From the NCBI GenBank assembly GCA_000995065.1, contig LBWX01000001.1:159563-223562 (forward strand): a stretch of 64,000 nt of DNA, read 5' to 3'. The stretch is from a candidate division CPR2 bacterium GW2011_GWC2_39_35. Lineage in GTDB: Bacteria > Patescibacteriota > CPR2. Below the pieces are notes generated by a model, which made no database searches, was not told the DNA's origin, and saw only the letters and a program-made list of their open reading frames with translations. Below, piece after piece: positions 3,872 through 19,832 of the stretch (position 1 is its first letter; each line of letters opens with the position of its first letter). The position numbers were made by a program, and so were the translations under genes.

Positions 3872-6621
3872 TGTCTTACTTAAAACCCATTGACGAGGTA
3901 TTAAAGGAATACAAAACAACCGAAGCCGGGCTCTCTAGCAATGAGGCCAGAAACCGCTTAATTAAATTTGGTCCGAATAAAATCGAAAACAAAAAGAAAC
4001 ATTCAGCACTAAAAAACTTTTTCTTGCAGTTTGTGGATTTCTTGGCCGTCATGCTTCTTATTGCAAGTACTTTGAGCTTTATATTAGGATCCTTAATAGA
4101 TGGGTTTGTAATTTTGGGTATCGTTATTCTAAACGCCACTATCTCATTTTTCCAAGAGTACAAAGCCGAAAAGGCAATTGAGGCATTGCAGAGGATGGTA
4201 CCTCAAAAAACCACCATTATTCGAAATAATTCCGAAGATATCATTGATGTTTCAGAGCTTGTTCCCGGAGACATCGTCGTTTTAGAGGAAGGGGGCAAAA
4301 TTCCGGCCGACATAAGGTTAATTGCCGCCAACAACCTTTACACAAACGATTTTGCCTTGACCGGCGAATCAGAGCCACAGGAAAAATTTGCCGGAGTAGA
4401 AAAGAGACCAAATCTCTCGATTACCGATATTAATAATATGGTATTTATGGGGATGAGTGTTTCTACCGGCAATGCTATTGGAGTAGTAGTTGGCGCCGGA
4501 ATGAATACCGAGTTTGGAAAAATCGCCAGCTTTACCACCGAAACCAAAAAAGAGTTAAGTCCTCTACAGCTAGAAATAATCAATATCGGCAAAATCGTGA
4601 GCCGACTTGTCTTTATTTTAGCTGTCGTTTTAGGAATCATTGGATTCTTTCTCGGATACGGACTACTAGAAAACATAAAGTTTACTATCGGGGTCGCAGC
4701 AGCCTTAGTTCCGGAAGGCCTACCAGCCACTATTTCCGTCGCCCTCGCCATTGCCGTTCAGAAAATGGCAAAAAGAAAAGCCATTATAAAGAAATTATCC
4801 GCGGTCGAAACCATGGGATGCATCAATGTAATTGCCACTGACAAAACTGGCACCTTAACAAAAAATGAGATGACCGTCAAAGATATTTACGCTCTCGGAA
4901 TGGATATTCACGTAAAGGGCGTAGGCTACCAGACGAACGGCAAATTTTTAGCGGGTGATAAAGAACTATCGGCTAAGGAGTTAGAAAAGTTAGACCTATT
5001 TTTTAAAGCTTGCGTTCTTTGCAATAATGCCCACCTAAAACATCACAAAGATAAAAAAGAGATAATTGGGGACCAAACCGAAGGCTCTCTTCTAGTACTT
5101 GCCGAGAAGGCCGGCATCAAAAAAGAGCCCTACGCCGTTAAATACAAAGAAATTTCAGAAATTGCCTTTACCTCCGAAAGAAAGAAGATGTCCACCGTCA
5201 ATCTTATAGATGGTAAAGCTCACGTTTTCTCAAAAGGCGCTCCCATCGAGGTTCTTTCTATTTGTAAGAAGGTTTTAATTGATGGCAAGGAACAAAACTT
5301 AACAGAAAACCTAAGAGAAGAAATTATAAACAAAAATAATGAATATGCCTCGAACGCCATGAGGGTCTTGGGCCTTGCCTATAAACCCATAGACATAAAG
5401 GATGAATATACCGAAAAAGAAGTGGAAAGCGATTTAATCTTCTTAGGACTTGCTGCCATCATCGATCCTCCGAGGGAAGAGGTAAAATTGGCTATAAATT
5501 TAGCTAAATCGGCCGGTATTAAGGTTTTTATGGTAACAGGTGATTATTCCCTTACAGGCCAAGCTATTGCCTTAAGAATCGGCCTTGGTGATAATTTAAA
5601 AGTCATAACCGGAACAGAACTTAATCATTTATCTGATAAAGAGCTATCCGAGATCTTAAAAATAAACGAATCGGCCATTTTTTCCCGCGTTGCTCCCGAA
5701 CATAAAATGCGAATTACCAAAATCTTGCAAAAAAATGGCCAAATTGTGGCTGTTACCGGAGACGGCGTTAATGATGCGCCTGCTCTTAAAAAAGCCAATG
5801 TTGGCGTGGCAATGGGAATTACCGGCACAGATGTTTCTAAAGAAGCGGCCGAAGTGATACTAACTGATGATAGCTTTGCTTCTATTATCTCGGCCATAAA
5901 AGAGGGCCGCATCATCTACGACAATATGAAAAAATTCATCAGGTACGTCTTCTCCTCGAACTTCGCTGAGTTAATTACCATTATTCTAGGCATCCCACTT
6001 GGCATTTCACCTTTATCGGCCATCCAAATTTTTGCAATCGATTTGGGCTCCGATATTGCACCTTCTTTAGCTTTAGCCGTTGACCCGGAAGACCCCGAGA
6101 TTATGTCTAGACAACCACGCAATCAGAAGCAAAAGATTTTTAACAAAGTAATGATTAGAGATCTAGTAATCGTAGGTTTTTTTGCTGCCTTCTTTGCTGT
6201 CCTCTCATTTATCTTTGTTATGGTAAACGGCGGTTGGCAATGGGGCGAAAGAATGACATCCAATGACTTTCTATATCGCCAGGGAAACGCCGCCACCGTC
6301 GCTGGCATTGCCTTAAGCCAAATAATCGTAACTTTCTATTGTCGAGCACCACATCTCTCTATAGTCAAAAGCTTTGGCCAGAATAAACGACTTGTGTACG
6401 CCAACTTATTTTCCGCTTTTTTACTCTTAAACGTAATTTACAATCCTTTGTTTAACAAAATGTATTCTACGGGACCACTAGAGCTAATTCATTGGCTGGT
6501 AATTCTATCTGGCATCTCGATTTTTGCACTCATGCTTGAGGGTTACAAAATCATCACTAGACCCAAAACTCCTACCCCCATAAACGATAAGGAGCCAGAG
6601 CTTCAACCAACTGCTAATTGA
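3871..6621 (+). CDS. P-type cation-transporting ATPase (type IIA, Ca2+/Mg2+-like)
   Basis: DKTGTLT phosphorylation motif, TGDGVNDAPAL hinge motif, TGES, ~10 TM segments, 916 aa. Confidence 0.85.
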   Translation: MSYLKPIDEVLKEYKTTEAGLSSNEARNRLIKFGPNKIENKKKHSALKNFFLQFVDFLAVMLLIASTLSFILGSLIDGFVILGIVILNATISFFQEYKAEKAIEALQRMVPQKTTIIRNNSEDIIDVSELVPGDIVVLEEGGKIPADIRLIAANNLYTNDFALTGESEPQEKFAGVEKRPNLSITDINNMVFMGMSVSTGNAIGVVVGAGMNTEFGKIASFTTETKKELSPLQLEIINIGKIVSRLVFILAVVLGIIGFFLGYGLLENIKFTIGVAAALVPEGLPATISVALAIAVQKMAKRKAIIKKLSAVETMGCINVIATDKTGTLTKNEMTVKDIYALGMDIHVKGVGYQTNGKFLAGDKELSAKELEKLDLFFKACVLCNNAHLKHHKDKKEIIGDQTEGSLLVLAEKAGIKKEPYAVKYKEISEIAFTSERKKMSTVNLIDGKAHVFSKGAPIEVLSICKKVLIDGKEQNLTENLREEIINKNNEYASNAMRVLGLAYKPIDIKDEYTEKEVESDLIFLGLAAIIDPPREEVKLAINLAKSAGIKVFMVTGDYSLTGQAIALRIGLGDNLKVITGTELNHLSDKELSEILKINESAIFSRVAPEHKMRITKILQKNGQIVAVTGDGVNDAPALKKANVGVAMGITGTDVSKEAAEVILTDDSFASIISAIKEGRIIYDNMKKFIRYVFSSNFAELITIILGIPLGISPLSAIQIFAIDLGSDIAPSLALAVDPEDPEIMSRQPRNQKQKIFNKVMIRDLVIVGFFAAFFAVLSFIFVMVNGGWQWGERMTSNDFLYRQGNAATVAGIALSQIIVTFYCRAPHLSIVKSFGQNKRLVYANLFSAFLLLNVIYNPLFNKMYSTGPLELIHWLVILSGISIFALMLEGYKIITRPKTPTPINDKEPELQPTAN

Positions 6622-8249: not shown

Positions 8250-8285
8250 AAAATACTAATTTATGCTAAACTAAATTAGTATTTT
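8250..8285. repeat. perfect 14-bp AT-rich inverted repeat aaaatactaattta / taaattagtatttt with an 8-nt spacer
   Basis: Direct reading. Sits ~30 bp upstream of tRNA-Gln. Confidence 0.7.
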
Positions 8286-9900
8286 AAAGTTGTTTACTGT
8301 TTCCTGCTACCTGATTATGGGGAGTCGCCAAGCGGTAAGGCACTGGGTTCTGGTCCCAGCATTCGGGGGTTCGAATCCCTCCTCCCCAGCCAAAGGGGAC
8401 GCACCCCGGCTGAAAGTCGATAATTATGCAATAGAAAGGCGAAATCTCGGAGTTCGAATAACGTTCATCTTGCCATACCAGTCCGGATGGAAATATCGAA
8501 CTCAAGAGAATTCGTGTTTGATCCAGGTTGGAATTAGCAAAGGTCTGTGACAAGTTTTCGAACTTACTTCTTATAAAGTTAGTTATATCTTCAAGATTAT
8601 ATTTACCAATAAGCTCATCATTTTTAGTTACTTGAATATCTTTTATTTTCTCTTCTAACACCTTATTCTGCTCTTTAAACATCTCGTCGGAATAAACACC
8701 CGATAGATTCTTTTGTATAAGCGCTTGGCGTGTCCCATACAGCTTCTTTAACTCAATATCGGCATCCTCTCGTCTCTTTTGCAGCGTTGAGATCCTCTGA
8801 TAATACGTTTTCTTCAGAAAGGTATTAAATAGCTCTAAAGTCTCAACAGTGGGAGTTATTTGGGCTAAATAATCCATCGTTGCTAGATTTAGTTCGTCTA
8901 CAGAAAAAGACTTGCTACAGCGATTAGGGCAAAAATAATATGCATAGCGCTTTGTCTTGCCTTGAGTCCAGGCGCCCGTAAGGGGACTATCACAATGCTT
9001 GCATCTTACAATGCGTCTAAGAGGGAAGTCTGGATTGTCCTGATTCCTTCTCATAATCGGCGTAGAAATATTAGTATTCCGACCATCCAGGATAGCCTGG
9101 ACTTTGTAAAATAATTCCTCGGTGATCATGGCCGGATGTTGACCCTCAACTTCTTGGCCGTACTTTTTAGAAATAACTTTACCAGTATAGAACTTGTTAT
9201 GGAAAAGCCTGTTGATTGTTTGCGGCCTTATGGGTCCGCCTTTTTGTCTCTGAGTAACTCCTTGCTTGGTTAGGATATCCGCTATTTCCCTTAATGTTTT
9301 TGTGCCGGTAGCCACTAAATCCCAGGCTTCTTTTATCTTGTCAGAAGTTGCCGGATCTTTTATTGCATAGCCGTTTTGATTAATATACCCAAGCGGTACA
9401 TATGCTGCGAGTCCGGCCTGAAACCTTGCTCTAAGACCATTCCGGCTTCGTTCACCTCTAACATCATTATCCATTTGAGCAAACCCGGCCAGCATTGTTT
9501 CCACAAATTTCTCTGTGGGGCTATTACCTGTTGGTTCAGTTGCTGAAACTAATTTAATATCACATTCAGTCAGTTTTCTTCTTATTACTAAATAATCTGC
9601 CGTTTCCCTGGAAATGCGATCAAGACGATACACAATGACGGCTGCAATTTCTCTTTTTTGCTTCCTACAAAACTCTAGCATTTCAATGAGAGTCGGGCGG
9701 CCATTGATGGTTTTTGCTGACCGTCCTTCTTCTTTAAAAACCTGCAAAACATCAAAGCCTCTGTTTCTGGCATCTTTCCTGCATATGTCTTCTTGTGTAC
9801 CTAACGAATAATTCTCAACCTGGTCCTCACTTGATACCCGAACATAAATTACTGCCTTCTCAGGTCTTAATGCGGTTTTTCCAAAGTTTATTTGGCTCAT
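8284..9900 (-). CDS. large serine recombinase (resolvase N-domain + recombinase domain + zinc-ribbon/coiled-coil)
   Basis: N-terminal AVIYVRVSSEDQ catalytic-Ser motif. Recombinase domain and CxxC...C region. 538-aa ORF. The last ~45 codons run antisense through tRNA-Gln and the 24-bp repeat, so the true C-terminus is uncertain. Confidence 0.8.
   Translation of the reverse strand: MSQINFGKTALRPEKAVIYVRVSSEDQVENYSLGTQEDICRKDARNRGFDVLQVFKEEGRSAKTINGRPTLIEMLEFCRKQKREIAAVIVYRLDRISRETADYLVIRRKLTECDIKLVSATEPTGNSPTEKFVETMLAGFAQMDNDVRGERSRNGLRARFQAGLAAYVPLGYINQNGYAIKDPATSDKIKEAWDLVATGTKTLREIADILTKQGVTQRQKGGPIRPQTINRLFHNKFYTGKVISKKYGQEVEGQHPAMITEELFYKVQAILDGRNTNISTPIMRRNQDNPDFPLRRIVRCKHCDSPLTGAWTQGKTKRYAYYFCPNRCSKSFSVDELNLATMDYLAQITPTVETLELFNTFLKKTYYQRISTLQKRREDADIELKKLYGTRQALIQKNLSGVYSDEMFKEQNKVLEEKIKDIQVTKNDELIGKYNLEDITNFIRSKFENLSQTFANSNLDQTRILLSSIFPSGLVWQDERYSNSEISPFYCIIIDFQPGCVPFGWGGGIRTPECWDQNPVPYRLATPHNQVAGNSKQL
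8318..8392 (+). tRNA. tRNA-Gln (anticodon CTG)
   Basis: Manual cloverleaf fold. Acceptor UGGGGAG/CUCCCCA with U1:A72 as in bacterial tRNA-Gln. D-stem GCC/GGC. Anticodon stem CUGGG/CCCAG with loop UUCUGGU. T-arm GGGGG-UUCGAAU-CCCUC. Discriminator G. Encoded CCA. Confidence 0.8.
8392..8415. repeat. 24-bp direct repeat copy 1 (aaaggggacgcaccccggctgaaa), candidate att core
   Basis: Identical 24-mer at 19809-19832. Copy 1 begins at the last A of the tRNA-Gln CCA. Contains the GGGG-ACGCA-CCCC hairpin. Confidence 0.8.
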
Positions 9901-10048
9901 TTAACCCTCCCTTATTAGCTCCTTCAATGTTTTATTATTAAAAACCTGTCTTTCATATTCATTAAGCCAACATTCCAAGAGGTATTGAAATTCAGTAAGA
10001 AAGGAATCAAGATCTTCATCTGATAGCATACTAACGGCTTCTCCCATG
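9901..10048 (-). pseudogene. 3' remnant (49 codons) of a gene split by the IS481-like insertion; stop overlaps the recombinase ATG (TAAATG)
   Basis: Reading minus-strand 11139-11604 and 9901-10076 across one copy of the 12-bp duplication restores a continuous ~210-codon frame. Confidence 0.45.
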
Positions 10049-10076
10049 ATTGTCCGAGCCTTTTGAATCCGATTAT

Positions 10077-11126
10077 GGTACAGGGTCTAGACATTTAGGA
10101 CACTAAAATCTAAGTTTGCTTTCTCATAGCCCTCTAAACTTTTAAGGTATTCAAGTGGTGTTTTGTTAGACAAAGATTCATGGGGTCTGTAAATATTGTA
10201 CTTAACACAGTTTTCTGTGTTCAACTTCTGTAGCTTCAATATATCACTAAAGCTATCTAGTTTTGAATACACTTCCCTTTGATCGGTTCGGTGGCTTCTC
10301 TCAACTCGTCCATTGATGTTGGGACTAGCTGGAGGGATGAGGATGTGATCAATGCCTAGCTTCTGTAATAGCTCATCTAGCGGATGAGTTCTTTTAATCT
10401 TTAGGAAGTGATTGTAGGTAAACTCCGTACCATTGTCTGTTTGGATAATCTCTGGTACAAAAGCCGGTAAAAAGAACCGCCTAGCCTTAAGAACAAAATC
10501 AACTGTGTTTAAGGGAGTGATATTGTCATAGATATATTTAAATTTAATTCTGGTAGCACAATCGATGATGGAATATTGATAGGCTTCTCTTTTTAGGTGC
10601 TTTACATCCAATTGAAGCCTTTCCCCCGGATAGTAGGGATAATCCCAATAATTTCTACTTATGCGTTTCTTCTTGGGTTTTTTCTTAATTAACCCTAGCC
10701 TATGTAGGTTGTTGTTAATCCCTCGATCAGAAACCTTGATGCCATAATCTCTCTCCAGCACAAATTGGATCTTGGCTTTGCCCCAGTTATTCTCCTGTCT
10801 TAGTTTAATAATTAGTTCAATGATATCCTCATCATAGGACCTCGGGTTTGTTAAGGGTTTTTTGCTTTTGTCGTAGAGGCTCTTTTGACTTTTACCTGAT
10901 TCAACCCATCTTTTGTGCCAGTAGTAATATGTACTTCTTTCAATACCATAATATTTACAAGCTGCTTTAGCCGATCCTAATTCCTTGGCTTTTTCAAACC
11001 AAGCGAGCCGGAGCCTAGCTCCGTAAATGGTTAATTGTTTCTGGGTCATCTTGTATCTCACTTTTAGTCCTCTCTATTGTTTAATATTCTACTAAAAGTG
11101 TCCAACATGTCTGTACCCTGTATAAT
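10077..11126 (-). mobile_element. IS481-family insertion sequence (~1050 bp) with ~28-bp imperfect terminal inverted repeats and 12-bp target-site duplication
   Basis: TIRs GGTACAGGGTCTAGACATTTAGGACACT (left) versus the reverse complement of AGTGTCCAACATGTCTGTACCCTGTATA (right). Direct repeats gaatccgattat at 10065-10076 and 11127-11138. Confidence 0.7.
10087..11061 (-). CDS. DDE transposase, IS481 family (rve integrase core)
   Basis: N-terminal HTH region, QTDNGTEF and NGRVERSHRTDQRE motifs of the rve DDE domain, 324 aa. Confidence 0.8.
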   Translation of the reverse strand: MRYKMTQKQLTIYGARLRLAWFEKAKELGSAKAACKYYGIERSTYYYWHKRWVESGKSQKSLYDKSKKPLTNPRSYDEDIIELIIKLRQENNWGKAKIQFVLERDYGIKVSDRGINNNLHRLGLIKKKPKKKRISRNYWDYPYYPGERLQLDVKHLKREAYQYSIIDCATRIKFKYIYDNITPLNTVDFVLKARRFFLPAFVPEIIQTDNGTEFTYNHFLKIKRTHPLDELLQKLGIDHILIPPASPNINGRVERSHRTDQREVYSKLDSFSDILKLQKLNTENCVKYNIYRPHESLSNKTPLEYLKSLEGYEKANLDFSVLNV

Positions 11127-11604
11127 GAATCCGATTATCTACTTGACGTTCAGAAAAGGTTTGCACTAAAGAGTTAAATGACTGTCTAGGGCTAAAGGGG
11201 AGTTCAAAAGATCTTTTCCCAGTTGCAAATTCAGTGTTCTTTGGCACACTTGCACCATTTGTAAACACGCCTGGCCTGTCTAAAACATTTGTTGTACTTG
11301 TTTCCATTGCAAACTCCTTACTATGGTTATATTCATAGTCTACTATGGGTATATCCACAGTGTCAAGGGGATAATTTGAGATCGTTTTAGTCTCGTTTAC
11401 CTGTTTCTTTAGCCCTGTTTTTAGCCTTTCCTTTCCCATGTCTTTTTCCTTTCTTTTAAAAAATGCGTGCTTTTGATACCAGACACAAATAGGTGAGGAA
11501 GCAAGCGTAGTCAAAACTGGAGCTCCCCACCGGAAGAACGAGTTTGACGACGCTTTCCTCGCCGTATAATCCAAACCCAAAAGCACTTCTTTTAGAAATT
11601 CCAA
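11092..11604 (-). pseudogene. hypothetical gene, 3' end interrupted by the IS insertion (last 11 codons and the stop come from IS/TSD sequence)
   Basis: The ORF terminates inside the IS right end. See reconstruction with 9901-10048. Confidence 0.45.
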
Positions 11605-11650
11605 GTCTTAAAGAGTGTTATTAAAACGTTATGACTATGACCAAACTTAA

Positions 11651-11679
11651 TTGAATCTTAAGCGATTTAAGAGTATAAT
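11651..11679 (+). promoter_or_regulatory. sigma70-like promoter TTGAAT-17 bp-TATAAT for the cargo operon
   Basis: Direct reading ~40 bp upstream of the first cargo ORF. Confidence 0.45.
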
Positions 11680-11720
11680 GAAGCCAAAATTAAGCAATCG
11701 TTTTGGTTTAGGAGAATATA

Positions 11721-11954
11721 ATGGAAAAAGACGAAATCCTTGTTGCCGAGTTTACTGCTCCAGAATTAATGCTTGCTTGTCAGAAAGCTAAGGCAATTGT
11801 TACTGATATGGGCGGCGTACTTTCCCATGCTGCTATAGTTAGTAGAGAGTTAAAGATCCCTTGTGTTGTAGGTACTCATACAGCCACTAAAGCTTTAAAA
11901 AATGGCAATAAAATCTTAATTGACTTAAATTCTGGAACAGTTCAAAAGATTTAA
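11721..11954 (+). CDS. stand-alone PEP-utilizing-enzyme mobile (phosphohistidine swivel) domain protein
   Basis: TDMGGVLSHAAIVSRELKIPCVVG matches the swivel-domain signature with the conserved His. 77 aa. Confidence 0.6.
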   Translation: MEKDEILVAEFTAPELMLACQKAKAIVTDMGGVLSHAAIVSRELKIPCVVGTHTATKALKNGNKILIDLNSGTVQKI

Positions 11955-12016
11955 ATTAAGTAAAATATTAAGAATCTAATCTCGAAGTTACTTCATGAAT
12001 AAAAACGAGGAATGAA

Positions 12017-12688
12017 ATGAATACAAATCCATATGCAAAAAGAATATTAATTTTCGGAGACTCAAATGTCTGGGGCGATATTCCGCTTCAAGTCGGAACT
12101 AGGCTACCTGCCAATGTTCGCTGGACAGGGGTTTTACAGAATATGCTTGGAAATGATTATGAAGTCATTGAAGAAGGTTTAATAGGCCGAACAACAAATG
12201 TTGATGATCCATTTCCAGGTTTTGAAGACAAAAACGGAAAAGATTATCTTTTTCCTTGTTTAAGGTCTCAAATTCCGCTTGATTATGTTATTTTACTTTT
12301 AGGAAGTAATGATTTTAAGAAAGTTTTTAACCGAACAGCAAAAGATGTTGCTAAAGGTATTGATGAGCTCTTAACGCTTACAGAAAAATACGCTGAAAGA
12401 GACGGGGTTAAAGCAAAAATTCTTTTAATATCTCCTACCTATATCAAACCGAAAATCGAAGAAGTAAAACCTCATTTTTCAGGCTCTCCTGAAAAATCAC
12501 TTGAGTTGGGAAAAGAATTAGAACAAGTAGCCAAAAAACATCAATGCGGATTTATTAACTTGGCAGAATTTATTGAACCAAGTGATCTTGATAGTATTCA
12601 TTTGGAACCTGAATCACATAAAATAGTGGCCCAAAAGGTTTTTGAATTTTTAAAGAAGTCGAGGAATAAGCATGAAGCTAAAAGATAA
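12017..12688 (+). CDS. SGNH/GDSL-family hydrolase
   Basis: Block I GDS motif (IFGDSNVWG) and LLGSND block. Confidence 0.65.
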   Translation: MNTNPYAKRILIFGDSNVWGDIPLQVGTRLPANVRWTGVLQNMLGNDYEVIEEGLIGRTTNVDDPFPGFEDKNGKDYLFPCLRSQIPLDYVILLLGSNDFKKVFNRTAKDVAKGIDELLTLTEKYAERDGVKAKILLISPTYIKPKIEEVKPHFSGSPEKSLELGKELEQVAKKHQCGFINLAEFIEPSDLDSIHLEPESHKIVAQKVFEFLKKSRNKHEAKR

Positions 12689-13394
12689 ATATGCAATTGT
12701 AACAGGAGCCTCGACAGGAATTGGCAGGGCTATTGCTGTCCAATTTGCCAAAGAAGGGGCTTTTGTGGCTTTGGTAGCAAGAAGAGAAGATAGGCTGAGT
12801 GAAACCAAAAGAATGATTGAAGAAAATGGCGGCAAGGCTAAAGTTTTCATTACTGATTTAAGCAACATTGAATCTGTAAATAAAATGATAGGTGAAATTA
12901 AAAGCGATACTATAAGAATAGATATTTTAGCAAACATTGCCGGTATTTGGCATGGCGAGGATGAGGTTTATGCAGATACCGATTTTGAAAAATTTAGCCA
13001 AAACGTAATTTTAGACACTTATGATGTTGGCATTACTGCTCCAACACTTTTAGCACACGCATTTATTCCTTTAATGCCTAAAAGGGGTAAAATATTAAAT
13101 TTATCTGGCACTTTTGAATCCGGAGCTAAGGGATGGCTGCCTTATTATGTTTCTAAAAAAGCTATCGAAGATTTAACTGTTGGTTTATCTCAAGAATTAA
13201 CTGACAAAGACATCCAAGTAAATTGTATTTCTCCTTCTGATACGGCAACCGAGGAATATAAAAAATACTTTCCCCAATACATTAAAGATGCCATTGAACC
13301 AGAAGAAATAGCTAAAGAAGCCGTCAGATTTTGTTCTTCTGAGAGCGATGATATTACTGGCACCATTAAAGTAATTAAAAAGATGGGGGTTTAA
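12672..13394 (+). CDS. short-chain dehydrogenase/reductase (SDR)
   Basis: TGASTGIGRAIA Rossmann motif and YYVSKKA (YxxxK) catalytic motif. Confidence 0.8.
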   Translation: MKLKDKYAIVTGASTGIGRAIAVQFAKEGAFVALVARREDRLSETKRMIEENGGKAKVFITDLSNIESVNKMIGEIKSDTIRIDILANIAGIWHGEDEVYADTDFEKFSQNVILDTYDVGITAPTLLAHAFIPLMPKRGKILNLSGTFESGAKGWLPYYVSKKAIEDLTVGLSQELTDKDIQVNCISPSDTATEEYKKYFPQYIKDAIEPEEIAKEAVRFCSSESDDITGTIKVIKKMGV

Positions 13395-13395
13395 A

Positions 13396-14793
13396 ATGAA
13401 TAAACTAATCTCAACCAATCCTGCCGATAACTACACCAAAGTTGGTGAAGTAGAAATTTCAACCGATGAAGAAATTAAGGAAAAAGTTGCTAAAGCCAAT
13501 GCAGTTAAGACTATTTGGAAAGAACTTGGCGTTGATGGAAGGGTTAAACTACTAGAGCCAATTCGTGATGAATTTAAGACTCGAACTAATGAAATTGCTG
13601 AGCTAATTAGTTTAGAAACAGGCAAAGCAATCACAGAAAGTATATCCGAAGTAACTCGTTACGCTGAGGAGTTAACTTGGTTTTTAGAAAATGGTCCCAA
13701 AGCTTTAGCAGATGAAATAACACTAGAGGATAGTGAATCCTTGCATAGAATTAAGTACGAACCTTACGGCGTAGCAGCAGCCATTGCTCCTTGGAATTTT
13801 CCATTTGGAATGATGGTTTGGGGAGTTTTTCCAAATTTAGTTGCCGGTAATACTGTAGTTTTTAAAACCTCAGAGGAATCACCACTAACGGGTAAGTTAA
13901 TTGAAGAGATAATGTTAAGCCACAATCTACCGGAAGGTGTTTTTGCCGAAGTTTACGGTGCTGGTGATGTTGGCAAGAAACTCACAGAAAGTGATATTAA
14001 CTTAATTTGGTTTACGGGTAGCACCAGAACCGGAAAAGCGTTATACAAAACAGCAGCCGAGAAGTTTATCAAAGCTGTTCTTGAAATGGGAGGCTCCAAC
14101 CCTTGCGCTGTTTTTGAGGATGTTGATGTTTCCAAAACTGCTCCTGTCATATTCAATGGACGATACCGAAATAATGGTCAGGTATGCAGTGCTCTTAAAA
14201 GACTAATTGTACATGAAAACATTGCTGATGAACTTATATCTGAGCTTAAGAAAATCATTGAAAGCCAAAAGGTAGGAAATCCTCTTGATCCGCAGACTAA
14301 TTTAGGGAGTTTAGTCGCCAAAAGACAAAAAAACCTACTTGAAGAACAACTTAAAGATGCCTTAGACAAAGGCGCTAAAATAGCTGCCCAAACTAAACTC
14401 CCCGAAGGTTTAAAAGGTGCTTTCTTTGCTCCTACCTTACTGACTGATATTACTAAAGATATGAGAGTTTGGCATGAAGAAGTCTTTGGCCCCATTTTTC
14501 CATTAGTAACATTTAAGACAGAAGAAGAAGCCATAGAATTAGCTAATGATACTATCTATGGTCTCGGGGCAAGGGTAATGTCGGCTGATAAACATCGAGC
14601 TGACAGGGTGGCATCCAAAATAGATGCCGGTTCGGTAGCAATAAATACCGAATCAAGGTTTTGTCCTTGTGATCCTTTTGGTGGCTTTAAAAATTCTGGT
14701 CTAGGGCGTGAGCGTGGGTATGCCGGTCTTCAGGAGCTATGCCAGATTAAGGTTATTCAAGCATCAAATGATACTATATATACTGAGGCATAA
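13396..14793 (+). CDS. NAD(P)-dependent aldehyde dehydrogenase
   Basis: 465 aa. FTGSTRTGK, the EMGGSNP-type Glu region and the catalytic-Cys region (GQVCSA) typical of the ALDH superfamily. Confidence 0.85.
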   Translation: MNKLISTNPADNYTKVGEVEISTDEEIKEKVAKANAVKTIWKELGVDGRVKLLEPIRDEFKTRTNEIAELISLETGKAITESISEVTRYAEELTWFLENGPKALADEITLEDSESLHRIKYEPYGVAAAIAPWNFPFGMMVWGVFPNLVAGNTVVFKTSEESPLTGKLIEEIMLSHNLPEGVFAEVYGAGDVGKKLTESDINLIWFTGSTRTGKALYKTAAEKFIKAVLEMGGSNPCAVFEDVDVSKTAPVIFNGRYRNNGQVCSALKRLIVHENIADELISELKKIIESQKVGNPLDPQTNLGSLVAKRQKNLLEEQLKDALDKGAKIAAQTKLPEGLKGAFFAPTLLTDITKDMRVWHEEVFGPIFPLVTFKTEEEAIELANDTIYGLGARVMSADKHRADRVASKIDAGSVAINTESRFCPCDPFGGFKNSGLGRERGYAGLQELCQIKVIQASNDTIYTEA

Positions 14794-14795
14794 AT

Positions 14796-15554
14796 ATGGT
14801 AAACGCATCAAAAACTATCGGAATAATTGACTTTAATCCAGATCAAAACCCTGATCGAAGGCAATATGTAAAACGGATTAGTGCTTTACTTTCTGGCAAT
14901 GTAAGTGGTGAAGGCATATTCTTTAGGGAAGTAGACGATTTAAATAAATATGATGCTCTTATTCTATCGGGCTCTAAGCTTATCTCTAAACATTATCAAG
15001 AAATGGTTAGATCAGGGCAAGGATTGGAAGGTGATTATATTTGGATTGATAGGGCAGTTCAAGAAATAGCCAATTTTAAGGGGCCAATTTTTGGTATTTG
15101 CTTTGGTTCTCAAATCTTAGCACATATATTTGGTGGTGAAATCGGAAGGTTGGATAAAACCGAGGCTGGATATTTGCTTCACGAACTAACAGATGTAGGA
15201 TTAAATGATCCTATTTTTGGAAAGTTAGGTAAAACTTTCTGGGCTTCCCATTACCATATTAACTATGTCAAAACTTTACCTGATAATCCAAATTTAGCGT
15301 CAGATGTTCTTGCAACCAGAAATGGATATATCCATGCCTTTCGAATAAAAACTGCTTCTGGCGTAACTCACTATGGAACCCAACCCCATCCAGAAATGTC
15401 TAACCCAAAAGATGCTGTTTTCCTTGTCGAGGTAAATAAGGAACGGCTAATTGAAGATATTGGCGTTGAGGAATGTAATAAAGCTTTAGAAATTCCAAGT
15501 AATGCTAGTTTTGAATTTCAGAATGTAATTAAAGAGTTTGTAAAAAGAATATAA
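14796..15554 (+). CDS. class I glutamine amidotransferase-like protein
   Basis: GICFGSQ nucleophile-elbow Cys and downstream HPE consistent with the Cys-His-Glu triad. Confidence 0.65.
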   Translation: MVNASKTIGIIDFNPDQNPDRRQYVKRISALLSGNVSGEGIFFREVDDLNKYDALILSGSKLISKHYQEMVRSGQGLEGDYIWIDRAVQEIANFKGPIFGICFGSQILAHIFGGEIGRLDKTEAGYLLHELTDVGLNDPIFGKLGKTFWASHYHINYVKTLPDNPNLASDVLATRNGYIHAFRIKTASGVTHYGTQPHPEMSNPKDAVFLVEVNKERLIEDIGVEECNKALEIPSNASFEFQNVIKEFVKRI

Positions 15555-15563
15555 AGGAATAAT

Positions 15564-16151
15564 ATGGACGAAACACAAAGAATAATCGATTTTATACACT
15601 ATGCAGAGAAGCTGAAAACAGAACTAAGAAAAGCTTTTAAAAGTGATGAGAGCCGAGAAAGTGTAGCTGAACACACTTGGCGAGTTTCTTTAATGCTACT
15701 TTTGATAGTGCCTAAACTAAAAATAGAGGTTGATTTTCTAAAGATTCTTAAGATGGCGATTATTCATGACTTAGCTGAAATTGAAGCAAAGGATGTGCCA
15801 GTATTAGAATCTATAAACAACCATGAAAGGCTAAGCATAAAAGAAGAACAAGAGTTGGCAGCAATGAATAATATTAGAGCAATGCCGGGAGCTGATGGAC
15901 AAGAAATTTATGATCTATGGTCAGAGTATGAGGAACAAAAAACCAATGAAGCCAGGGCTTTAAAAGCTATTGATAGACTTGAAGGGCAGTTTCAATTCTT
16001 GAGCGAAAATGTAACTACTTTTACCGAACAAGACCAAGAAGCAATTAAGAAATTATTAGAAGAAACTACCAAACTATCTAAAATTGATCCATTTATCACT
16101 AGGCTAGACGAATTAACAATGGAAGATAGGCAAAATAGGATTAAATTCTAA
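15564..16151 (+). CDS. HD-domain phosphohydrolase, YfbR-like 5'-deoxynucleotidase family
   Basis: ESVAEHTWRVSLM ... IIHDLAEIEAKD HD motifs. Confidence 0.7.
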   Translation: MDETQRIIDFIHYAEKLKTELRKAFKSDESRESVAEHTWRVSLMLLLIVPKLKIEVDFLKILKMAIIHDLAEIEAKDVPVLESINNHERLSIKEEQELAAMNNIRAMPGADGQEIYDLWSEYEEQKTNEARALKAIDRLEGQFQFLSENVTTFTEQDQEAIKKLLEETTKLSKIDPFITRLDELTMEDRQNRIKF

Positions 16152-16153
16152 GA

Positions 16154-16903
16154 GTGGTAACGATGAAAGATGAAATTTCAACAAAAAAAGCTCTTGGCAT
16201 TTTGGCAAAAACTTTGCCACAAATTATTTATACTACTATTCTTGGCCTTACCCAAGTCAACCCTGTATGGTCAATTCTTTTTTACACCGGATTAGGAATG
16301 GTTAATGCCTGGGGATCCTTCGGCCAGGTTAGAATCAATGAGTTAGTTACATTTATAGATAAACATAGAGATCAGTTCCTTCCAGATATTATTAAGAGTG
16401 AGAAATTTAAATCTATCTTTCTAAATATCTTAGATGCTTATTTTAAAGAAACATTAGAAGAAAAAAGAAAGTTGCTAAGAAATTATTTATTAAATGTCGG
16501 AAAAGGTATAGAGAAAGACTTTGATTATCATACAAAATTAATGACCGTTTTGAATCAGATCACGTTTGATGAGCTTAAGGTTATCTCAATTTGGAACGGT
16601 AAATTGCAGGATAAGTTTGTTGAGAAAAATTCAGAAATTGGCTACACAAGGGATAATATTGAAGAAAAAATGACAAATCTTAATGCGGGACAAATCGCAT
16701 GGGCGTTAGGAAGAGAGGAAAAAGGTCAAAAAATTATGAGAAATATCAATTTTCTTGTGAAATCACTGGGTAATTACGGACTTTTAGATGTGAGAGAGTC
16801 TACACCAGTTATATTTGACAGTGAAAATAATAACTCTACTGTTGTTGTAGATGGAATAAGTGATTTCGGTAAAGCATTCCTAGGCTTTTTAAAGGAGGAC
16901 TAA
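16154..16903 (+). CDS. hypothetical protein
   Basis: 249-aa ORF in the operon. No recognisable motif. Confidence 0.4.
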   Translation: MVTMKDEISTKKALGILAKTLPQIIYTTILGLTQVNPVWSILFYTGLGMVNAWGSFGQVRINELVTFIDKHRDQFLPDIIKSEKFKSIFLNILDAYFKETLEEKRKLLRNYLLNVGKGIEKDFDYHTKLMTVLNQITFDELKVISIWNGKLQDKFVEKNSEIGYTRDNIEEKMTNLNAGQIAWALGREEKGQKIMRNINFLVKSLGNYGLLDVRESTPVIFDSENNNSTVVVDGISDFGKAFLGFLKED

Positions 16904-17263
16904 ATGGCAGAGATCGGAACAATTCAAAGATTTAGAGCTTCTCATGGGAAAGATAACCATGAGCATGATTTTAAAGTTGTAGTGGTTCTAGGTGGGCCAA
17001 TCGATAACGATACAGGGTATGTTTCTGGTGTTGATCATCATGACCTTATTGATAAATTAAAACAAATTCTGGGAAAGCTTGAGGATCAGAATTTAAATCA
17101 AATCCTCAAGGATGATGGTTCAAAATCCTCTGGTATGGAATCTATTGCTACTTATGTTCTTAAAAGATTGTTACCCGATTTACCCTCTTTAAAACTGGTA
17201 AAAGTTTGGGAAACAGATGATAGATATGCAATTATCTATCCAGGGGATATTGGAAATGTCTAA
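16904..17263 (+). CDS. 6-pyruvoyl-tetrahydropterin synthase / QueD-like fold protein
   Basis: His-containing N-terminal segment (HGKDNHEHDFKVVV), TGYVSGVDHHDLID, and ESIATYVLKRL...VKVWETDDRYAIIY resembling the PTPS C-terminal signature. 119 aa. Confidence 0.5.
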   Translation: MAEIGTIQRFRASHGKDNHEHDFKVVVVLGGPIDNDTGYVSGVDHHDLIDKLKQILGKLEDQNLNQILKDDGSKSSGMESIATYVLKRLLPDLPSLKLVKVWETDDRYAIIYPGDIGNV

Positions 17264-17705
17264 TCAAACTAAAAAGCAAACATCAATCATAATTGGATTA
17301 AAGGATAACAAAGTTCTCTTGGGTATGAAAAAGAGAGGTTTTGGCGAAGGTTATTGGAATGGTTTTGGCGGTAAAAGAAACAAAAGTGAAACCATGACCG
17401 AAGCTGCTCTTAGGGAAATTGAAGAAGAAGCAGGAATTATTCCCACCGACTTAAAAGAAGTTGGAATAATTGAATTTGATACTTTTACGACTCATATTTA
17501 TACCTTTTCCAACTATGAGGGAAAATTAACCGAATCCGAAGAAATGAAACCAAAGTGGTTTAATAATAATAGTCTCCCTTATGACAAAATGTGGGAAGGC
17601 GATAATATTTGGTTTCCCTTAGTTTTAGATGGCAAATGTTTTGATGCCGAATTTATATTTGAAGGTAAAAATTTAACCGAATGTCATATAAAGGTTAGGA
17701 AATAG
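17256..17705 (+). CDS. Nudix hydrolase, MTH1/NUDT1-like (oxidised purine dNTP pyrophosphatase type)
   Basis: Nudix box GGKRNKSETMTEAALREIEEEAGI. Overall resemblance to MTH1 (LGMKKRGFGEGYWNGFGG ... MKPKWF ... MWEGDNIWFPL). ATG overlaps the upstream stop (ATGTCTAA). Confidence 0.75.
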   Translation: MSNQTKKQTSIIIGLKDNKVLLGMKKRGFGEGYWNGFGGKRNKSETMTEAALREIEEEAGIIPTDLKEVGIIEFDTFTTHIYTFSNYEGKLTESEEMKPKWFNNNSLPYDKMWEGDNIWFPLVLDGKCFDAEFIFEGKNLTECHIKVRK

Positions 17706-17848
17706 AGATTGAACACAAATATTGTTCTAAATGACTTTAAATAAATCCTAAAGTTAGCATCAATTTTGACAGCCATAGATTATGGTCCGATAAAAAAGTT
17801 ACCCTTTTTTAAAAAGATAAGTTAAAATTAAGTGGTTTGGAGAACTAA

Positions 17849-18220
17849 ATGAAGTACAAATACACGGCTCAAGAAGCCAAACATATCAATAAATATGGTG
17901 CCGATTTAACTGTTTTCGGCCAAGTTGCGCCAACTGCAAGTATTGTTCGTATTTCGGTTGAAGAAGGGCATTTTGAAGAGTTTAAGCATGATGAAAGCAC
18001 TTTTATTTACTATGTTATCAAGGGTAATGGCATCTTTGTTCTTAATGATGAACAAGTGGAGGTTAAGGCTACGGACTTGATAGCAATCCCACCAAAAACC
18101 CGAATTCATTATTTTGGAAAAATGGAAATGCTGCTTGTGGTAACTCCTGCCTTTGACCCAAACAAAGAAGGCCACGTTCGGATGATCGGCAAAGAAGAAA
18201 ATCCATTAAAAAGAAGATAG
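17849..18220 (+). CDS. cupin-like small protein
   Basis: 123 aa. Beta-rich composition with a conserved His/Glu spacing. Weak call. Confidence 0.35.
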   Translation: MKYKYTAQEAKHINKYGADLTVFGQVAPTASIVRISVEEGHFEEFKHDESTFIYYVIKGNGIFVLNDEQVEVKATDLIAIPPKTRIHYFGKMEMLLVVTPAFDPNKEGHVRMIGKEENPLKRR

Positions 18221-18313
18221 TGCCCATTTTAACCCGAGCATCTTGTTCTAAGAAGTATAATTCGCTATTTTTGTTTTTATCGCTTAAAATAAAATTGATT
18301 AAGATTAGGATAT

Positions 18314-18835
18314 ATGAAATTTGTCGATACTAACCTCAAAGTACCTTTGGTACTGAAAACAGAAAGCTTTACTCTTAGGCCGTTGTCTCCGAAATATACA
18401 GAAATGGATTATAAGGCTATTATGTCTAACTTGGAACATCTGCAGGGCACCTTTGGTCCTTCCATAAAATGGCCGACAGCCGATCTTACGTTAGAAGAAA
18501 ACCAGTATGACTTGGAATTTCATCATGACCTTTTTATGAAGAGAGAAGAGTTTAGTTATATTGTTCTTGATCCGAAAGAGAAGTATTCAAAAGGTTGTGT
18601 GTACTTAGTTCCTTTGCTGCATCCGGATTATGACGTTTTAGTTTATTCTTGGGTTACCGCCAAAGAGGCAAAAAAGAATTTTCATCCTGTTCTAATTAAA
18701 ACTATTAAAGAGTGGTTACAAACATCCTGGCCGTTTAAAAAACCAGTTTTCCCCGGAATAACCATCTCTTGGGATGAATGGGATAAATGTCTGGGAGCAA
18801 ATGCAAATAATCCTACTCTCAAAACCCAAAATTAG
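18314..18835 (+). CDS. hypothetical protein (possible GNAT-like fold)
   Basis: 173-aa ORF. Weak resemblance only. Confidence 0.3.
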   Translation: MKFVDTNLKVPLVLKTESFTLRPLSPKYTEMDYKAIMSNLEHLQGTFGPSIKWPTADLTLEENQYDLEFHHDLFMKREEFSYIVLDPKEKYSKGCVYLVPLLHPDYDVLVYSWVTAKEAKKNFHPVLIKTIKEWLQTSWPFKKPVFPGITISWDEWDKCLGANANNPTLKTQN

Positions 18836-18941
18836 CAAAACCTAATTTTAATAAGAAATTACTCTAACTAGAAAACCAAGTGGTTTCGGACATTCTTTTC
18901 ATAAGTCTACTAATGCTATTATCCTGTTATTTAGTAGTGAA

Positions 18942-19190
18942 ATGTGGTATATTATCAGCAATATGACAAACGATAATAATGAGACAATCCGAAAAGAATT
19001 GGGTGAGAAAATAAAAAAGGCTAGAGAAAAAGCCGGACTAACCCAATCAGAAGTAGCTGCTGCCGCAGATATTAATGTTAGTTATTATGCTCAAATCGAA
19101 AGGGGGGAAGTAAACCCCTCATTTGAAAAACTTCACAGTATTACAAAAGTCCTTAAATTAAAGTCGTTTGATATTCTTAAAAAGAGTTGA
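18942..19190 (+). CDS. XRE-family helix-turn-helix transcriptional regulator
   Basis: LTQSEVAAAADINVSYYAQIERGE HTH_3 signature. The true start may be the internal ATG at 18963. Confidence 0.7.
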   Translation: MWYIISNMTNDNNETIRKELGEKIKKAREKAGLTQSEVAAAADINVSYYAQIERGEVNPSFEKLHSITKVLKLKSFDILKKS

Positions 19191-19191
19191 T

Positions 19192-19704
19192 ATGATTTGC
19201 AATAATGTTAACAATATTAGTTTTATTGGTATGGCTGGAGTCGGTAAAAGTTATTTCAGTAATAAGCTAATTAACTTCGGATATGAACACATTAAAGTAG
19301 ATGAACTTATTACCAATTTAGCCAACCTGAAGGGTGTCAACAAAGAAACGATTTCTGACAGTGAGTTTATAAAACTCGAGGAGCAAGCCATTCTTAACTT
19401 AAAAGAAGTATCCGAATCGGCAATTGATACCGGAGGCAGTGTTATATACTCTAATGAGGCTATGGAGTTACTTAAAGAAATTTCAGTTGTAGTATATCTT
19501 AAAGATTCCTTGGAAAACATTAAAAAGAGATTTGATGTCAGAGGCGAACCTCATTTGATCGGAATTGAAGGCAAGACCTTCGAAGAATTATTTCAAGAAA
19601 GATCTGAACAATACCAAAAATATGCAGACGTTATAATAGATGTTACAAAGATAAGCGATATTGAAGAAATTCTTTCAATAATCGGATCAAAGTCCCAAAA
19701 ATAG
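19192..19704 (+). CDS. P-loop kinase, shikimate-kinase-like fold
   Basis: Walker A GMAGVGKS. Overall collinearity with the AroK family (VDEL..., DTGGSVIYS, LID-like region). The track ORF starts at 19168, overlapping the regulator. Confidence 0.5.
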   Translation: MICNNVNNISFIGMAGVGKSYFSNKLINFGYEHIKVDELITNLANLKGVNKETISDSEFIKLEEQAILNLKEVSESAIDTGGSVIYSNEAMELLKEISVVVYLKDSLENIKKRFDVRGEPHLIGIEGKTFEELFQERSEQYQKYADVIIDVTKISDIEEILSIIGSKSQK

Positions 19705-19808
19705 AAATTCCACAGCTGCAACCACTAACTATGTAACTTCCTTAAAAGCTCTCATTATCCTATCAACCCACTCTAAAAAGAGTTCGAAAGAAAGTGCATC
19801 CAGGCAGC

Positions 19809-19832
19809 AAAGGGGACGCACCCCGGCTGAAA
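19809..19832. repeat. 24-bp direct repeat copy 2 (aaaggggacgcaccccggctgaaa)
   Basis: Identical to 8392-8415. Confidence 0.8.

Follow-up and report, generated by a model that had tools for sequence, protein, structure and literature searches.

What was encoded by a short gene that an insertion sequence (IS) has split directly upstream of the recombinase gene of a tRNA-linked island, and what might the loss of its product mean for that recombinase? The locus lies on contig LBWX01000001.1 of the candidate division CPR2 bacterium GW2011_GWC2_39_35, a member of the candidate phyla radiation (CPR), in a 64,000-nucleotide stretch of DNA that was analyzed as a whole (the window, to which all coordinates refer unless another locus is named; Table 1). 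An earlier reading of this DNA, called here the original prediction, had placed an IS481-like element in a gene translationally coupled to a serine recombinase and had proposed that the gene product is an accessory factor of the recombinase. In the explanation that we favor, one IS481-family element, oriented like its host gene, transposed between codons 60 and 61 of the small gene and duplicated 12 (or 13) bp at the target site. It thereby hit the first gene of an operon consisting of a promoter, the small gene and a large serine recombinase (LSR) gene, and the small protein would be a partner of the recombinase. Taken as a whole, this explanation is very probably correct.

The following observations define the limits of the element. 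The 12-mer GAATCCGATTAT occurs exactly at 10065-10076 and at 11127-11138, and one further matching base extends it to the 13-mer TGAATCCGATTAT at 10064-10076 and 11126-11138; neither has a third site on either strand of the 64 kb. The closest other copy of the element (L002, in the metagenome-assembled genome, or MAG, DBS2-1.bin108) is 87% identical in amino acid and 80% identical in nucleotide sequence, and its nucleotide similarity spans exactly window positions 11126 to 10077, which are the inner edges of the two repeats. L002 is flanked by an 11-15-bp repeat of its own. As the 13th base is also present at the end of L002, a duplication of 12 bp and one of 13 bp are not distinguishable. Two multi-copy relatives from a Saccharibacteria MAG (L006 and L007) have duplications of 16 and 14 bp, and long duplications at these three loci are therefore a property of this IS subgroup. 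The inverted ends, which had been put at about 28 bp, are imperfect as described and measure 26 bp, with 22 of the 26 positions complementary. A degenerate pattern of these ends matches two sites in the 64 kb, the ends themselves, with none expected from 100 shuffles. Other copies sharing such ends had been proposed as a check; matching the inverted ends reveals no second copy in the window, and relatives are found elsewhere, at L002, L006 and L007.

The transposase is a single open reading frame (ORF) of 324 residues without a programmed frameshift, in which the Pfam domains HTH_32/HTH_23 at the N terminus are combined with rve/rve_3. D152, D209 and E254 do not vary when the transposase is aligned with eight relatives. 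Its top NCBIfam family is IS481 (NF033577), with 202.4 bits over model positions 2-283 of 284, which leads the second family, IS3 (83 bits), by 119 bits; as the score lies under the NCBI curated cut-off of 224 bits, the family assignment is based on best match and architecture. By these features of its sequence, the transposase is a divergent IS481 member. The intact ends and the intact DDE triad suggest that the element may be active.

When 10077-11138 is deleted in silico, a single uninterrupted frame of about 213 codons runs from 11604 to 9901. The exact repeats, the DDE transposase and the stop-free rejoining of the frame all bear out the original prediction, and so does the coupling of the host gene to the recombinase, the Shine-Dalgarno (SD) sequence of which is contained in the final codons of the small gene. 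The size of about 210 codons does not hold, as homologues are about 85-140 residues long and align from ATG 11307, which has its own SD sequence and promoter; the stop codon, described as overlapping the recombinase ATG, directly abuts it instead. The joined product, used as a query, retrieved an intact homologue of 113 residues (P0002), the first residue of which aligns to METSTTN at ATG 11307. P0002 continues across the junction, with LIQKARLIMG against RIQKARTIMG in the window. The biological gene thus has 114 codons on the minus strand. The sequence AAGGAG at 11319-11314 precedes its ATG by six bases, and the same promoter layout is found ahead of the P0002 gene in the P0002 contig. The stretch 11400-11604, counted as coding in the original prediction, is non-coding, lies upstream of the operon promoter and holds a 72-nt hairpin. 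The upstream starts, namely MGKERL... (the 115- and 170-residue ORFs of gene callers) and TTG 11604, were rejected, as they precede the conserved promoter and lie outside the alignment with homologues.

The insertion point is located in the conserved domain of the small protein, in its first long helix and within a near-invariant QKAR motif. The N-terminal product that is left (71 residues, 11307-11092) ends in an IS-encoded tail and is devoid of the conserved domain; the C-terminal leftover is the 48-codon remnant. The insertion has shifted the native promoter 1,062 bp from the recombinase. In public records (KKR18786.1 / KKS09771.1 etc.), the split halves are listed as separate hypothetical proteins of 48 and of 115 or 170 residues, and the upstream starts of the 115- and 170-residue entries are probably wrong. 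With the annotation corrected, three "hypothetical" CPR2 ORFs become the two halves of one gene and an IS.

The small protein belongs to a sizable family. An exhaustive HMMER search of 1.84 billion cluster representatives returned 388 relatives at E<=1e-3, counted as clusters at 50% identity, and 239 at E<=1e-10. Nearly all are 85-140 residues long, with conservation in the C-terminal ~70 residues (consensus ..IFPEqxEExxiQKARrImGxxxxxLSDEELexYLTEFQYLidsWLDeyEkqvFxgkTLkqlL..), and the named sources are CPR lineages: CPR2, Woykebacteria and Microgenomates. Two family members bear the spurious automatic names PI-3 kinase and MlaC. An AlphaFold model built with a 71-sequence alignment has residues 1-33 disordered, followed by helices at 40-50, 52-71, 76-101 and 107-113, with a confidence score (pLDDT) of ~90 or above across residues 61-114. 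The conserved C-terminal domain is acidic, with a median pI of 4.5 and a net charge of -7. Literature searches on serine-recombinase elements of CPR/Patescibacteria and on accessory proteins turned up no account of the family, and a scan of viral contigs found no members.

The evidence that ties this family to the recombinase is its genomic position. At nine of nine independent loci, including the window, a family member is located directly upstream of a homologous LSR gene or overlaps it; loci on long contigs were used whether the search started from small proteins or from LSR homologues. Starting from the small-protein matches, all five loci (L001, L016, L017/18, L019, L020/21) have a homologous LSR, which begins anywhere from 17 nt inside to 13 nt past the end of the small gene. 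When three LSR homologues were instead taken blind as the starting point, each proved to have a family member immediately upstream (L043, L044 and L045; HMM E values of 1e-28 to 1e-35), with one 4-nt overlap and two gaps of 1-2 nt. The junction is an ATGA overlap in four loci, and the last codons of the small gene spell the recombinase SD sequence both in the window (..REG) and in L044 (..QEG). A Rosetta-stone test on 120 LSR homologues found no fusion to the small-protein domain; homologues of at least 600 residues were included, and their extra length is C-terminal.

The LSR ORFs of the relatives end antisense in tRNA genes in all loci checked, and the tRNA types at six LSR 3' ends are Gln, Ser, Glu, Glu, Gly and Leu. 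tRNA genes are therefore the targets of these serine integrases, and each integrase gene has the attachment (att) site at its own end. The neighboring genes of the relatives differ and encode Replic_Relax proteins, TrwB/TraG-type coupling proteins, DUF2958 proteins and, in two cases, diversity-generating retroelement (DGR) modules. The small gene and the LSR gene thus make up the integration module of a variety of CPR integrative elements.

Because the adjacency is strict, the start/stop coupling is kept across unrelated elements, and the helical domain is acidic and unlike a DNA-binding domain, the small protein appears, somewhat better than evenly, to be a dedicated partner of this LSR clade. 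Most likely it would bind the recombinase as a cofactor that controls directionality or activity. If the small protein is such a cofactor, its loss probably alters or abolishes the regulated recombination of the island. The insertion has displaced the native promoter, and translational coupling now depends on the remnant ORF. Read-through from the native and transposase promoters could still allow transcription of the intact recombinase gene; the IS has the same orientation as the operon, and a single weak terminator-like site is all that is predicted on the IS/operon strand. The accessory factor of the original prediction thus gains the synteny of nine out of nine loci, with its function suggested by gene arrangement and protein features. 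A wider claim, that the family as a whole (at least 388 clusters at 50% identity) consists of obligate, translationally coupled cofactors of a large clade of tRNA-targeting CPR LSRs, is tentative, and we give it less than even weight.

Among the more specific roles, the small protein might be a recombination directionality factor (RDF) that switches the LSR to attL x attR excision, in which case the insertion would have left the island locked in the chromosome. Such a role is favored by the strict synteny with the LSR gene and the translational coupling to it, and an acidic helical domain fits protein binding rather than DNA binding. That homology to a known RDF is absent is no objection, since RDFs share no common fold or structure according to PMC12286644. 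The same source characterizes known RDFs by a lack of synteny with the integrase gene, which counts against the proposal, and obligatory co-expression with the integrase would hinder integration after transfer. As to the lock, every contig examined at the locus has the integrated arrangement and none has an empty site, but missing empty sites prove nothing in a clonal population, and an island without transfer genes was perhaps immobile regardless. We regard an RDF whose loss locked the island as rather unlikely.

It is also conceivable that the small protein is merely co-expressed with the LSR and acts in transfer, replication or host interaction, so that the IS would be neutral for mobility. 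Other functions are indeed at hand, since the elements of the relatives carry coupling-protein, Replic_Relax and DUF2958 genes. The small gene, however, stays attached to the LSR across elements that differ in the rest of their content (the DGR-bearing islands L001 and L017, the cargo-only island of the window, and conjugative-type elements), and a conserved start/stop overlap is the pattern of a functional pair. An unrelated role is unlikely.

According to a third proposal, the small protein would be an autoregulator that binds a palindrome on the -10 element of the operon promoter, and the IS would derepress or rewire recombinase expression. Most promoters examined have such a palindrome, with an element-specific half-site and copies only at the promoter, and the N-terminal region of the protein likewise varies by element. 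This N terminus is nevertheless predicted to be disordered, the strong acidity of the conserved domain argues against an operator-binding role, and no helix-turn-helix (HTH), ribbon-helix-helix or other DNA-binding signature was found. The LSR itself and neighboring Replic_Relax/XRE proteins are other candidates for binding the operator. Autoregulation is highly unlikely. The notion that the repeats are fortuitous or internal to the element, and that the flanking ORF pieces never formed one gene, has behind it only the general caution that short repeats can arise by chance and is of negligible probability, as the 12/13-mer is confined to two positions, these coincide with the exact homology edges against an independent IS copy, and intact homologues can be aligned over the full length of the joined product, including the junction.

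Several points weigh against the explanation favored here, in which a coupled partner of the LSR was lost to an IS481-family insertion. Among the records of this lineage there is no IS-free allele and no empty site; the uninterrupted allele that the original prediction had proposed to look for exists as the homologue P0002, intact across the junction, and not as a record of the same lineage. The exact reconstructed 114-residue protein is not found in a collection of 15 billion proteins. The small protein has no homology to a known family, solved structure or viral fold: there is no Pfam, NCBIfam, PHROG or PDB-sequence match, and Foldseek finds no match to its fold in PDB and BFVD. In the source genome this IS is present as one copy in one context, and its IS481 score is below the cut-off as given above. 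The island of the window also lacks the Replic_Relax and coupling-protein genes seen in the relatives; its cargo contains no transfer or replication genes, so the island may have been immobile for other reasons.

The population records are contigs of CPR2 genomes of the Rifle aquifer that were retrieved by matches to the transposase, to the remnant or to the neighboring glutamyl-tRNA synthetase (GluRS). All are 100% identical over the compared region and have the same arrangement. The 24 contigs with this GluRS are 100% identical over the compared stretches, and the recombinase and the IS are present on those long enough to reach them. Contig breaks at the IS and at the tRNA were considered as signs of population heterogeneity and rejected, as the breaks fall in repeated or conserved sequence. 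A search of metagenome_contigs gave no match to the IS-free 27-mer or to the att core and is uninformative, since the organism is not in that collection.

The arrangement can be compared with known recombinase systems. The pairs SPbeta SprA/SprB, TP901-1 Int/Orf7, Bxb1 gp35/gp47 and phiC31 Int/gp3 each combine an LSR with a small family-specific RDF, as would be the case here. The genes of known RDFs are non-syntenic with their integrases (PMC12286644), unlike the partner described here, which is adjacent and translationally coupled in nine of nine loci. The small protein has no similarity in sequence or fold to any solved structure, and Pfam, NCBIfam, PHROG, PDB-sequence, PDB-fold and BFVD comparisons show no similarity to a characterized RDF or excisionase; this is not defining, because RDFs are heterogeneous.

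In Tn916, the small accessory gene xis-Tn lies immediately upstream of int-Tn at the element end and is co-transcribed with the integrase. The layout of the small gene and the LSR gene resembles this xis-int operon, but the recombinase of Tn916 is a tyrosine recombinase and that of the window a serine recombinase, and the small protein is acidic and helical and has no winged-helix excisionase signature. In the fdxN element of Anabaena, the LSR XisF needs the small element-encoded accessory proteins XisH and XisI for excision. Among NCBIfam families, the LSR of the window matches XisF best, with 90 bits against a cut-off of 375; XisH and XisI have Pfam families of their own, and the small protein matches neither. 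Tycheposons and other tRNA-associated cargo islands share the edge recombinase, the integration at a tRNA and the metabolic cargo, and in a minority of tycheposons this recombinase is an LSR (bioRxiv 10.1101/2020.12.28.424599). The island of the window differs from tycheposons in its CPR host phylum, in an LSR gene that runs antisense through the tRNA, in the conserved partner gene and in that no replication genes are seen.

The IS insertion is routine genome wear. The syntenic family of LSR partners is the interesting part, if modestly so, and offers the lead. The finding of cognate cofactors is a recognized bottleneck for LSR genome-engineering toolkits, and RDFs are described as lacking conservation and synteny (PMC12286644). 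If the small proteins are LSR partners, they would be the first class of such partners, RDF-like or activity-controlling, that is syntenic and can be recognized by sequence, in contrast to phage RDFs, which are non-syntenic and unrecognizable by sequence. A conserved and always adjacent partner family would give hundreds of candidate integrase-cofactor pairs together with their tRNA att sites. Insight would also be gained into the movement of mobile elements in CPR bacteria, on which, to our knowledge, almost nothing is known experimentally.

Table 1. Features of the window and of homologous loci
Feature	Position	Strand	Remarks
LSR gene, 538 aa	8284..9900	-	Intact; ORF antisense through tRNA-Gln
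tRNA-Gln (CTG)	8318..8392	+	ARAGORN; integration target of the island
Left 25-bp island repeat (attL core)	8391..8415		CAAAGGGGACGCACCCCGGCTGAAA; exact copy of 19808-19832
Small gene/recombinase junction	TAA 9903-9901, ATG 9900-9898	-	...AAGGGAGGGTTAAATGAGC
48-codon remnant ORF	9901-10047	-	MGEAVSM...IREG; including TAA stop
Small gene, 3' part	9901..10076	-	In frame with the 5' part once the IS is removed
Recombinase SD sequence	9905..9912	-	AGGGAGGG; within last small-gene codons (R-E-G)
Target-site duplication, copy 1	10065..10076		12 bp; identity reaches 10064
IS481-family IS, 1,050 bp	10077..11126	-	Ends are the similarity limits against L002
Terminal inverted repeat, transposase 3' side	10079..10104		Pairs with 11097-11122
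DDE transposase	10087..11061	-	GTG start; alternative ATG start gives 320 aa
Terminal inverted repeat, transposase 5' side	11097..11122		26 bp, imperfect
Target-site duplication, copy 2	11127..11138		12 bp; identity reaches 11126
Small gene, 5' part	11139..11307	-	Codons 1-56, then duplicated codons; start by homologue alignment and SD sequence
Operon promoter	11337..11366	-	TTGACA-N18-TAGACT; 10/12 consensus match; palindrome CATAGTAGACTATG over -10
Right 25-bp island repeat (attR core)	19808..19832		Then terminator hairpin AAAAAGACC..GGTCTTTTTT
Predicted IS-free junction			GAGCCTTTTGAATCCGATTATCTACTTGACG
Predicted attB junction			CCTCCCCAGCCAAAGGGGACGCACCCCGGCTGAAATATAAAAAGACC
Predicted attP junction			CATCCAGGCAGCAAAGGGGACGCACCCCGGCTGAAAGTCGATAATT
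LSR 3' end and tRNA, window	8284-8392		
tRNA site at LSR 3' end, L001	11897-11988		
tRNA site at LSR 3' end, L016	5804-5879		
tRNA site at LSR 3' end, L017	5811-5887		
tRNA site at LSR 3' end, L019	5868-5942		
tRNA site at LSR 3' end, L020	5948-6031		
Promoter region, window	11325-11372		
Promoter region, L001	~9930-9990		
Promoter regions, L016, L019, L020	~3900-4000		
Promoter regions, L043-L045	~4580-4720		

The split gene and the LSR gene form a two-gene minus-strand operon at the left end of an 11.4-kb island (8416-19832), immediately 3' of the tRNA-Gln gene. This is a tRNA-associated integrative island, with flanking repeats, a recombinase at its edge, and a GC content of 33-36% compared with 39-42% in the flanks. 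The 25-bp repeat begins at the last two bases of the tRNA-Gln gene. As an identity block between att sites it is long for an LSR, which normally requires only 2 bp of crossover identity, and it holds a GGGG-ACGCA-CCCC hairpin. The LSR matches Resolvase (PF00239, 108 bits), Recombinase (PF07508, 55 bits) and Zn_ribbon_recom (PF13408, 27 bits), all above the Pfam cut-offs, and has more than 1000 homologues at E<=1e-30. In the excised form its ORF would stop 11 codons past the att core, giving 514 instead of 538 residues, so integration alters the C-terminal tail of the recombinase in the window.

The cargo is metabolic and comprises a fragment of a phosphoenolpyruvate (PEP)-utilizing enzyme, a GDSL hydrolase, a short-chain dehydrogenase/reductase (SDR), an aldehyde dehydrogenase, GATase, HD, PTPS, NUDIX and cupin proteins and a SKI-like kinase; sequence inspection adds a predicted XRE-type regulator. 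The first cargo gene (11721-11954) is a free-standing 77-residue ORF that contains just the mobile (phosphohistidine) domain of a PEP-utilizing enzyme, and represents either a swivel domain that stands alone or a fragment of a gene. Between this divergent gene and the operon promoter, a 72-nt imperfect hairpin is located at 11492-11563 (-34.4 kcal/mol and z = -5.5 on the plus strand; z = -2.6 on the minus strand). It has no Rfam match and no second copy in the window; an oriT-like site, a terminator and a small RNA are possible candidates.

The element shares with the IS481 family the size of ~1 kb, the single HTH and rve-type DDE ORF, the imperfect inverted repeats and the target duplication. 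The type element of the family is IS481 of Bordetella pertussis; family members typically end in TGT and duplicate about 4-15 bp (ISfinder). The ends here are TACAGGG in contrast to TGT, and the duplications of 12-16 bp across this CPR subgroup are long for the family. Relatives of the element were found only in MAGs of uncultured bacteria, several of them labelled Saccharibacteria, and in one Thermomicrobiales bin, and are multi-copy in some (5 in OY969576.1, 3 in CAVUMM01). OY969576.1, a 1.9-Mb MAG chromosome of an uncultured bacterium, carries at least five related IS481-type copies (L009, L010, L011, L014, L015), and the L014 copy is itself split by ~1.1 kb of inserted DNA.

Of the relatives' loci, L001 (4621-6402) and L017 (1-1342) have DGR modules beside the LSR, with an RVT_1 reverse transcriptase and bAvd, and that of L001 also has an FN3/CarboxypepD_reg target protein. 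Most of the operon promoters examined have the layout TTGACA-N18-TA(T/G/A)ACT with a palindrome centered on the -10 element; in L017/L018, TTGACA is not visible in the 90 nt read. The palindrome half-sites vary by element (CATAGTAGACTATG in the window, GGATAGTATACTATCC in L045, CCTAGTATACTAGG in L044 and CTATTAATATATTAATAG in L043). The motif is present in two to four copies, clustered at the promoter only, and looks like a putative element-specific operator.

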